Origin: an uncultured Acidobacteriota bacterium
Lineage (GTDB): Bacteria > Acidobacteriota > Thermoanaerobaculia > Multivoradales > DATKCC01
DNA length: 64,000 nucleotides
Direction: 5' to 3'
Assembly (NCBI GenBank): GCA_963739795.1
Contig: CAVUBL010000012.1
Coordinates: 19,761 to 83,760 of the forward strand
Under the pieces are notes generated by a model that did not search any database, was not told the DNA's origin, and saw only the letters and a list, made by a program, of their open reading frames with translations. A program made the translations under genes and the position numbers. The first letter of the stretch is position 1; every line of letters begins with the position of its first letter. Of this stretch, positions 5,806 to 5,988 are shown one piece after another.

Positions 5806-5988
5806 ATAGGCTGGACTATTCATGAGGCGCCGTAGCGAGAGGCGCAAGTGCGTGTGAGATCAGGGCGCACGTAGCGATGAAAGACGCAGGCGTACTGGAC
5901 AGTACGTTGAGGAGCGAAGAGCGAGTACGCCCTGAGATCGCGTGCAATTGCGGCTCGTAGTAGGTGGCTCATGAATAGTCCAGGCTAG
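5806..5988. mobile_element. MITE family A, copy 1 (~180 bp) with 16-bp perfect terminal inverted repeats CTGGACTATTCATGAG and CTAG-like flanks
   Basis: About 96% identical to the copy at 47494-47676. Termini ctggactattcatgag ... ctcatgaatagtccag are read directly. Confidence 0.7.

Follow-up and report, generated by a model that had tools for sequence, protein, structure and literature searches.

What kind of element is a short repeat that sits at the very edge of a ribosome-binding site, and does it govern the gene whose translation starts there? The question is raised by the window, a 64-kb stretch of DNA from an uncultured Acidobacteriota bacterium, in which a repeat of about 180 bp occurs twice. 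One copy separates an MBL-fold hydrolase gene from a MacB/FtsX-type (ADOP-like) permease gene; a preliminary description had called the repeat a MITE and had suggested that it may supply the promoter of the permease gene. The features concerned are as follows.

5806 to 5809, no strand: left target-site duplication of copy 1, ATAG, with one mismatch to the right one.
5810 to 5984, plus strand: MITE copy 1, 175 bp, with terminal inverted repeats (TIRs) at 5810-5826 and 5968-5984, recognized by repeats, TIRs, hairpin and GC content.
5985 to 5988, no strand: right target-site duplication of copy 1, CTAG.
45058 to 47484, minus strand: MacB/FtsX-type (ADOP-like) permease gene, downstream of copy 2.
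47495 to 47498, no strand: target-site duplication of copy 2 adjoining the permease gene, CTAG; its minus-strand AG starts the motif AGGAGA.
47499 to 47673, plus strand: MITE copy 2, 175 bp, with TIRs at 47499-47515 and 47657-47673, between two minus-strand genes.
47674 to 47677, no strand: target-site duplication of copy 2 adjoining the MBL-fold gene, CTAG; 47674-47676 is the TAG stop of that gene on the minus strand.
47674 to 48666, minus strand: MBL-fold hydrolase gene of 330 aa, upstream of copy 2, with a GTG start at 48666.

A repeat search of the window returned a family of two 182-nt copies (5807-5988 and 47496-47677) that are 97% identical, close to the roughly 96% first estimated. With the duplications included, the copies extend over 5806-5988, as originally placed, and 47495-47677, one base later than the start of 47494 first given for copy 2. 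The element cores differ by 5 mismatches in 173 nt, and pairwise alignment showed that the similarity begins and ends abruptly at the element ends. The sequence CTGGACT(A/C)TTCATGAG occurs exactly four times in the 64 kb, as two inverted pairs, at 5811-5826 (plus), 5968-5983 (minus), 47500-47515 (plus) and 47657-47672 (minus), a number reached in 0 of 100 shuffles. These TIRs had been described as perfect over 16 bp, which holds for copy 1 (16/16); copy 2, where position 47507 is C and not A, matches at 15/16. The family-wide TIR has 17 nt (CCTGG...), and copy 1 carries G for the first C, at 5810. The complete element is thus 175 bp, CCTGGACTATTCATGAG...CTCATGAATAGTCCAGG, bounded by CCTGG...CCAGG.

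Each copy is predicted to fold as a single long imperfect hairpin of about 90 bp, with energies of -105 kcal/mol for the plus strand and -86 kcal/mol for the minus strand and z-scores of about -10 (-10.4 for copy 1). The GC content of the element, 0.59-0.61, is below the value of about 0.70 in its surroundings.

The family extends well beyond the window. A metagenome scan that required both TIRs at a spacing of 126-156 nt identified 42 loci with 45 further TIR-paired copies; counts out of 47 given below comprise these and the two window copies. The distance from CTGG to CCAG is exactly 173 nt in all 45 metagenome copies, and TIRs of 16-17 nt bound 47 of 47. Most of the further copies come from metagenome Ga0210123, in which 26 are mutually identical, a pattern typical of a recent burst, and share 92.5% identity with window copy 1; the copies of loci L004 and L010 share 98-99% identity with those in the window. 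More distant members retain the architecture. The elements of L018 (119-291) and L028 (4609-4781) have the same TIR and the identical 173-nt length with quite different interiors, and the one match in a scan of a genome collection, at 1077-1255 of locus L001 (CALKXZ010000036.1, a gammaproteobacterial Granulosicoccus MAG), has the same 16-17 nt TIR, again around a different interior. These three elements are almost equal in length (170-173 nt), their interiors are unrelated or strongly diverged, and all are foldback hairpins. A scan of viral contigs for the element gave no match, and a search of the whole element against plasmids returned nothing useful.

The flanks are equally regular. Nearly all copies are embedded in the arrangement ctag-C-CTGG...CCAG-G-ctag, and 38 of the 47 carry a perfect 4-bp duplication, 37 of them CTAG/CTAG and one, in locus L014, TTAG/TTAG; the other nine are imperfect. 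The CTAG-type flanks noted at the outset therefore proved to be 4-bp target-site duplications, ATAG/CTAG around copy 1 and CTAG/CTAG around copy 2. In two loci (L023, 5415-5774; L036, 5846-6203) two copies of this family, hereafter family A, lie in direct tandem with one CTAG common to both: here one element has inserted into the target duplication of another.

Sites without the element were found in relatives of the window genome. A MAG of the same species (L044, NCBI GCA_964443905.1) is 99.6-99.97% identical to window positions 40471-58672 and has no copy 2; its junction reads ...gtc ttC TAG aggcagcgtacaggaggcagcgaacgcg ATG (ttCTAGagg), with 28 nt between the genes, and an approximately 88% identical relative (L045) shares the same empty junction. 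Both hold a single CTAG at this site. The site of copy 1 is empty in a relative whose ETF-QO gene is about 95% identical (L052), where the sequence is ...gacgtgTAGgcggacccga... (gtgTAGgcgg), and the paralogous 185-nt repeat unit of the window itself (6141-6295) is also free of it. The surroundings of copy 1 were as first reported: the copy lies between a VapB-like ORF remnant and a repeat upstream of ETF-QO. The latter is a non-coding unit of 185 nt, tandemly duplicated (5996-6110 and 6181-6295, roughly 5781-6295 overall, 92% identity); copy 1 interrupts the first unit, and L052 has a single unit.

A 175-bp element with no conserved coding capacity, terminal inverted repeats, target-site duplications, 47 dispersed copies and orthologous sites that lack it (L044, L045 and L052) is a mobile MITE, and the original call stands on much broader evidence, to which dozens more copies, relatives with an empty site and a likely source among the IS families have been added.

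The presence or absence of copy 2 is, however, not a clean insertion, as the copy lies within a tract that differs from the same-species MAG.

47448 to 47716, no strand: divergent tract around copy 2 relative to L044, comprising 7 SNPs, the MITE and 47 nt in place of 56 nt.

All seven SNPs fall within the final 43 nt of the MBL-fold gene; where L044 has 56 nt after the stop codon, the window has 47 different nucleotides, giving a new spacer and a new permease N-terminus (MFQDLRQAL... in L044, MGGILSDVRRAF... in the window). The surrounding 18 kb differ from L044 by at most about 1 in 500 nt in most bins. Over about 105 nt inside the tract L044 and L045 do not differ at all, which is unexpected for two genomes with 81-88% identity elsewhere in this region and indicates that one of the two alleles was imported by homologous recombination. 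The exchange covered about 270 nt when the MITE is counted and about 100 nt when it is not, and what came in was either the MITE allele or an empty allele that displaced it. No donor of the 47-nt replacement was found in any sequence examined. Because the difference at copy 2 is embedded in this tract, it does not provide direct evidence of transposition there in this strain.

Which transposase mobilizes the family? Plasmid BLAST of a 30-nt element end gave three weak matches. Two of them, with E-values of 2 and 5, derive their weight from their position, as both fall exactly on the termini of elements with annotated IS1380-family transposases; the third, in Novosphingobium, has no transposase within 2.5 kb and is uninformative. 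The ends of the Lichenicola IS are ctag-CCTGGATAATTCATGAG...CGAATTATCCGGG-ctag (the right end also written CTGACGAATTATCCGGG-ctag), and those of the Sphingobium IS are atag-CCCGCACTATTCATGAG...CAGCGG-atag. Three further ISs, picked by transposase protein homology alone, have termini of the same kind: ctag-CCCGGATTATGCACGAG...CTCGTGCATAATCCGGG-ctag at both ends of L051, ttag-CCCGGAAAATTCACCAG...CTGATGAATTATCCGGG-ttag at both ends of L050, and one such end, ctag-CCCGGATTATGCACCAG, in L049. The MITE TIR CCTGGACTATTCATGAG matches the Lichenicola IS at 15 of 17 positions and L050 and L051 at 13 of 17, and the related ISs likewise make 4-bp NTAG duplications (CTAG/CTAG, TTAG/TTAG and ATAG/ATAG). Both the termini and the 4-bp direct duplication thus agree with an origin from the IS1380 family.

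The subgroup of IS1380 to which these elements belong is typified by the 449-aa transposase of Lichenicola cladoniae plasmid NZ_CP053709 (WP_171837372.1; PF13701 and PF01609). This protein has thousands of homologues, the best 120 of which have identities of 79% or more and originate from many sources, as fits a broad-host IS. Like those of the MITE, the TIRs of the subgroup start with CC and agree at 13-15 of 17 positions, and both kinds of element give a 4-bp NTAG duplication, mostly CTAG. The IS is about 1.6 kb long and carries a transposase gene, whereas the MITE has 175 bp and carries none, and its interior, a self-complementary foldback, bears no relation to that of the IS. No subterminal similarity to the IS was detected, the likeness being confined to the 17-nt TIR. 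In the 64-kb window and the 42 MITE-bearing metagenome loci (about 350 kb), tblastn found no IS1380-family transposase gene, and a search of the DNA examined for an autonomous partner found no unpaired or widely spaced TIR pairs, except for two separate MITEs.

Because of the TIR match and the type of duplication, we term the repeat an IS1380-family-derived foldback MITE. As far as sequence comparison can tell, it is very probably a non-autonomous element that derives from the IS1380 family or is at least recognized in trans by a DDE transposase of that family. Such a transposase would bind the TIRs and cut, and the element would be inserted at NTAG with a 4-bp staggered cut.

CTAG as a target with duplication of TA is the classical behaviour of IS630, and a TA duplication was our first reading of the CTAG flanks, dropped after the IS1380 matches and the TTAG/TTAG duplications. 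On that reading the repeat would be a Stowaway-like MITE of the IS630/Tc1-mariner type, GCCTGG...CCAGGC lying in CTAG and duplicating the central TA only. It would account without mutation for the three loci (L005, L022 and L041) in which only one flank is CTAG and the opposite flank is CTAA or CTAC. However, the presence of TTAG on both sides of the IS of L050 and the MITE of L014 indicates a duplication of 4 bp and not of TA, so that a TA-only model would need extra mutations there; the expected duplication of a TA dinucleotide was not found, and the TIR matches the termini of the IS1380 family, not of IS630. The IS630 type is disfavoured and, in our judgement, highly improbable.

Outward promoters are known from members of the IS1380 family such as ISEcp1, and a regulatory cassette, in which an outward promoter or another signal would drive or control the permease gene, is the reading that the position of copy 2 brings to mind. 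As first described, its distal CTAG ends at 47495, leaving 10 nt (GAGACGAGCC) to the permease ATG at 47484, and the motif AGGAGA spans the edge of the element. Furthermore, about 12 of the 47 copies have a start codon within 34 nt of the duplication, and the activation of resistance genes by transposable elements has been discussed (PMC9330008). Consensus scans for canonical sigma-70 sites, however, found no -35/-10 pair on the two strands of 47300-47900; neither a sigma-70-like promoter nor an intrinsic terminator was detected in or beside either copy. The family is inserted in both orientations relative to neighbouring genes without bias (5 versus 6), and a CTAG(GAG) target accounts for the closeness to start codons. 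Where relatives lack the element, the permease gene already follows the MBL-fold gene at 28 nt in the same orientation, which makes co-transcription with that gene the simpler reading. The proposal that the MITE drives the permease gene is thus unsupported, and we regard a regulatory cassette as quite improbable.

Nor does the ribosome-binding site itself belong to the element. The proximal CTAG of copy 2 restores the TAG stop of the 330-aa MBL-fold gene, and the distal CTAG gives the AG of AGGAGA, a motif separated from the permease ATG by 6 nt; the ribosome-binding site is target DNA plus the duplicated AG, not element DNA. The MBL-fold gene is overlain by a 475-aa ORF (47674-49101, minus strand) that is over-extended, homologues and the same-species MAG showing a protein of 330 aa; this protein has a signal-peptide-like N-terminus, and its Pfam matches include PF23023 (Anti-Pycsar_Apyc1-like).

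The target also explains why copies throughout the family adjoin genes. CTAG is strongly depleted in the window, with 35 sites observed against 106-177 expected. A real gene, defined by at least 100 codons and a GC3 of at least 0.8, ends exactly on the TAG of the duplication in 13 of the 47 copies, and the flank consensus (C)(T)C-CTAG-G(A)(G) corresponds to stop codons and ribosome-binding sites, and also to the terminus of a second MITE family. The gene-adjoining position thus arises because CTAG, rare at 70% GC, often coincides with TAG stops or CTAGGAG ribosome-binding sites. We propose that in such a genome CTAG survives mainly as C followed by a TAG stop and in CTAGGAG neighbourhoods, which would direct the element to intergenic positions, and that the duplication would give back the stop codon to the gene at one end of the element and the first bases of the ribosome-binding site to the gene at the other end. 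With both restored, insertions at operon junctions such as that between the MBL-fold and permease genes would be tolerated, and the element would then be passively transcribed as a hairpin of about 90 bp within the operon mRNA. On this view the repeat is a selfish element whose effects on adjacent genes are incidental, and it is no promoter cassette. Just over half of the CTAG sites of the window (18 of 35) lie in an island of lower GC content at about 26000-33000 (0.55-0.63 versus about 0.70), which is possibly horizontally acquired DNA.

If the hairpin is transcribed, could it be the hairpin that is selected? A REP/BIME/ERIC-like element, a structured RNA or DNA that the host retains for mRNA stability or processing and that does not spread by transposition, would be consistent with the folding of all subfamilies as long hairpins (z about -10), with the 12 double changes by which the divergent L028 element keeps its structure, and with the same exact 173-nt length in three lineages with different interiors. 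Against this, the compensatory pairs come nearly all from that single sequence, L028. Although the plus strand folds better by 15-20 kcal/mol, arm-versus-arm mismatches show no clear strand asymmetry of G-U over A-C (6:4, 5:3 and 6:3); a strand-specific selection on the RNA was rejected on these counts, the apparent excess of G-U polymorphism being an ascertainment effect of RNAalifold. At the gathering score, Rfam covariance models matched neither the window nor any of four loci chosen to represent four subfamilies. Target-site duplications, 26 identical copies, tandems sharing a CTAG (L023 and L036), presence/absence polymorphism and IS-type termini all speak against this reading, and a host-selected element appears highly unlikely. 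REP/BIME sequences are palindromes of 20-40 bp with GTAG/CGTC heads and RAYT transposases (PMC3733652); the present element has 175 bp, TIRs and a target duplication, and no such head.

Two more specific roles of the foldback were considered. A frame of 50 codons, running from an ATG in one TIR to a TGA in the other, is open on one strand in every subfamily and is the only ORF of the element. It was rejected as a coupling peptide, since the peptides are unrelated between subfamilies and the orientation relative to upstream genes is unbiased (5 open versus 6 closed), and we treat the frame as a by-product of the element design. With copy 2 read in the direction of the mRNA, the stem is predicted to continue through the duplication into UCUUCUAG/CUAGGAGA, and on this structure prediction the extended stem would sequester the permease ribosome-binding site. 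The foldback might then be more than tolerated: with the MBL stop and the permease ribosome-binding site on opposite strands of the stem base (UCUUCUAG...CUAGGAGA), the site would become accessible only upon termination of a ribosome at the MBL stop, the 28-nt junction would have been made strictly translation-coupled, and the conserved length and hairpin would reflect selection for a 'self-splicing-out' geometry. We put this forward as a speculative and, on balance, unlikely extension of the model of a selfish IS1380-derived MITE.

In its habits the family resembles the foldback MITEs known from other bacteria, such as Correia/NEMIS of Neisseria, ERIC/IRU, and Nezha of cyanobacteria. These are likewise small, present in many copies, bounded by TIRs and intergenic, with a co-transcribed hairpin and often at operon junctions. 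They differ in TIR, in putative transposase family, in host phylum (here Acidobacteriota, probably Thermoanaerobaculia-like) and in target duplication, TA as opposed to the 4-bp CTAG. ISEcp1, the promoter-providing IS upstream of blaCTX-M, belongs to the same IS family as the inferred parent and also lies directly upstream of a gene; unlike the MITE, in which no promoter-like sequence was found, it is autonomous, and it makes 5-bp duplications. Further afield, IS1380 forms an outgroup to piggyBac, its eukaryotic relatives (PMC10813416). Elements of piggyBac and their MITEs also duplicate a palindromic 4-bp target (TTAA versus CTAG here) and have termini that start with CC, but they form a eukaryotic superfamily with a different tetranucleotide.

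Other repeats occupy the same landscape. A second MITE family is represented in the window at 22031-22311 by a copy of 281 bp with TIRs GGAGTCTGCGCGGCAGAAAC / GTTTCTGCCGCGCAGACTCC and CTAG on both sides; further copies with 80-92% identity occur in L011, L024, L026, L027, L035, L038 and L043, and a family-A MITE is inserted into the terminal CTAG of this family in at least 10 loci. In an 83% relative (L046, 10994-11327) the junction of the MBL-fold and permease genes holds a different insert, of 334 nt, with two repeats of about 55 nt (GATGCCCCCCGCATCCCC...GGGGGGGAAGGGGACG), which matches window positions 63844-63974 at 90%; repeats seem to have landed at this junction repeatedly. The direct repeats of the window are dominated by the many FG-GAP/VCBS-like DxDxDG coding repeats at 59800-63800, which are unrelated to the MITE.

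Our literature search found no paper with this TIR sequence or with an IS1380-derived MITE, an absence that is no proof of novelty. The element is well worth annotating, and is not surprising to a specialist. For the poorly studied uncultured Acidobacteriota, our analysis provides a checkable annotation of a repeat family, with its ends, its duplication and its likely parent IS family. For annotators, it shows that a gene-adjoining position alone is no evidence of regulation, as CTAG targeting explains why these elements are seated exactly on stop codons and ribosome-binding sites. Lastly, the permease junction, which exists with and without the MITE at the strain level, could serve to measure what a 90-bp hairpin does within an operon.
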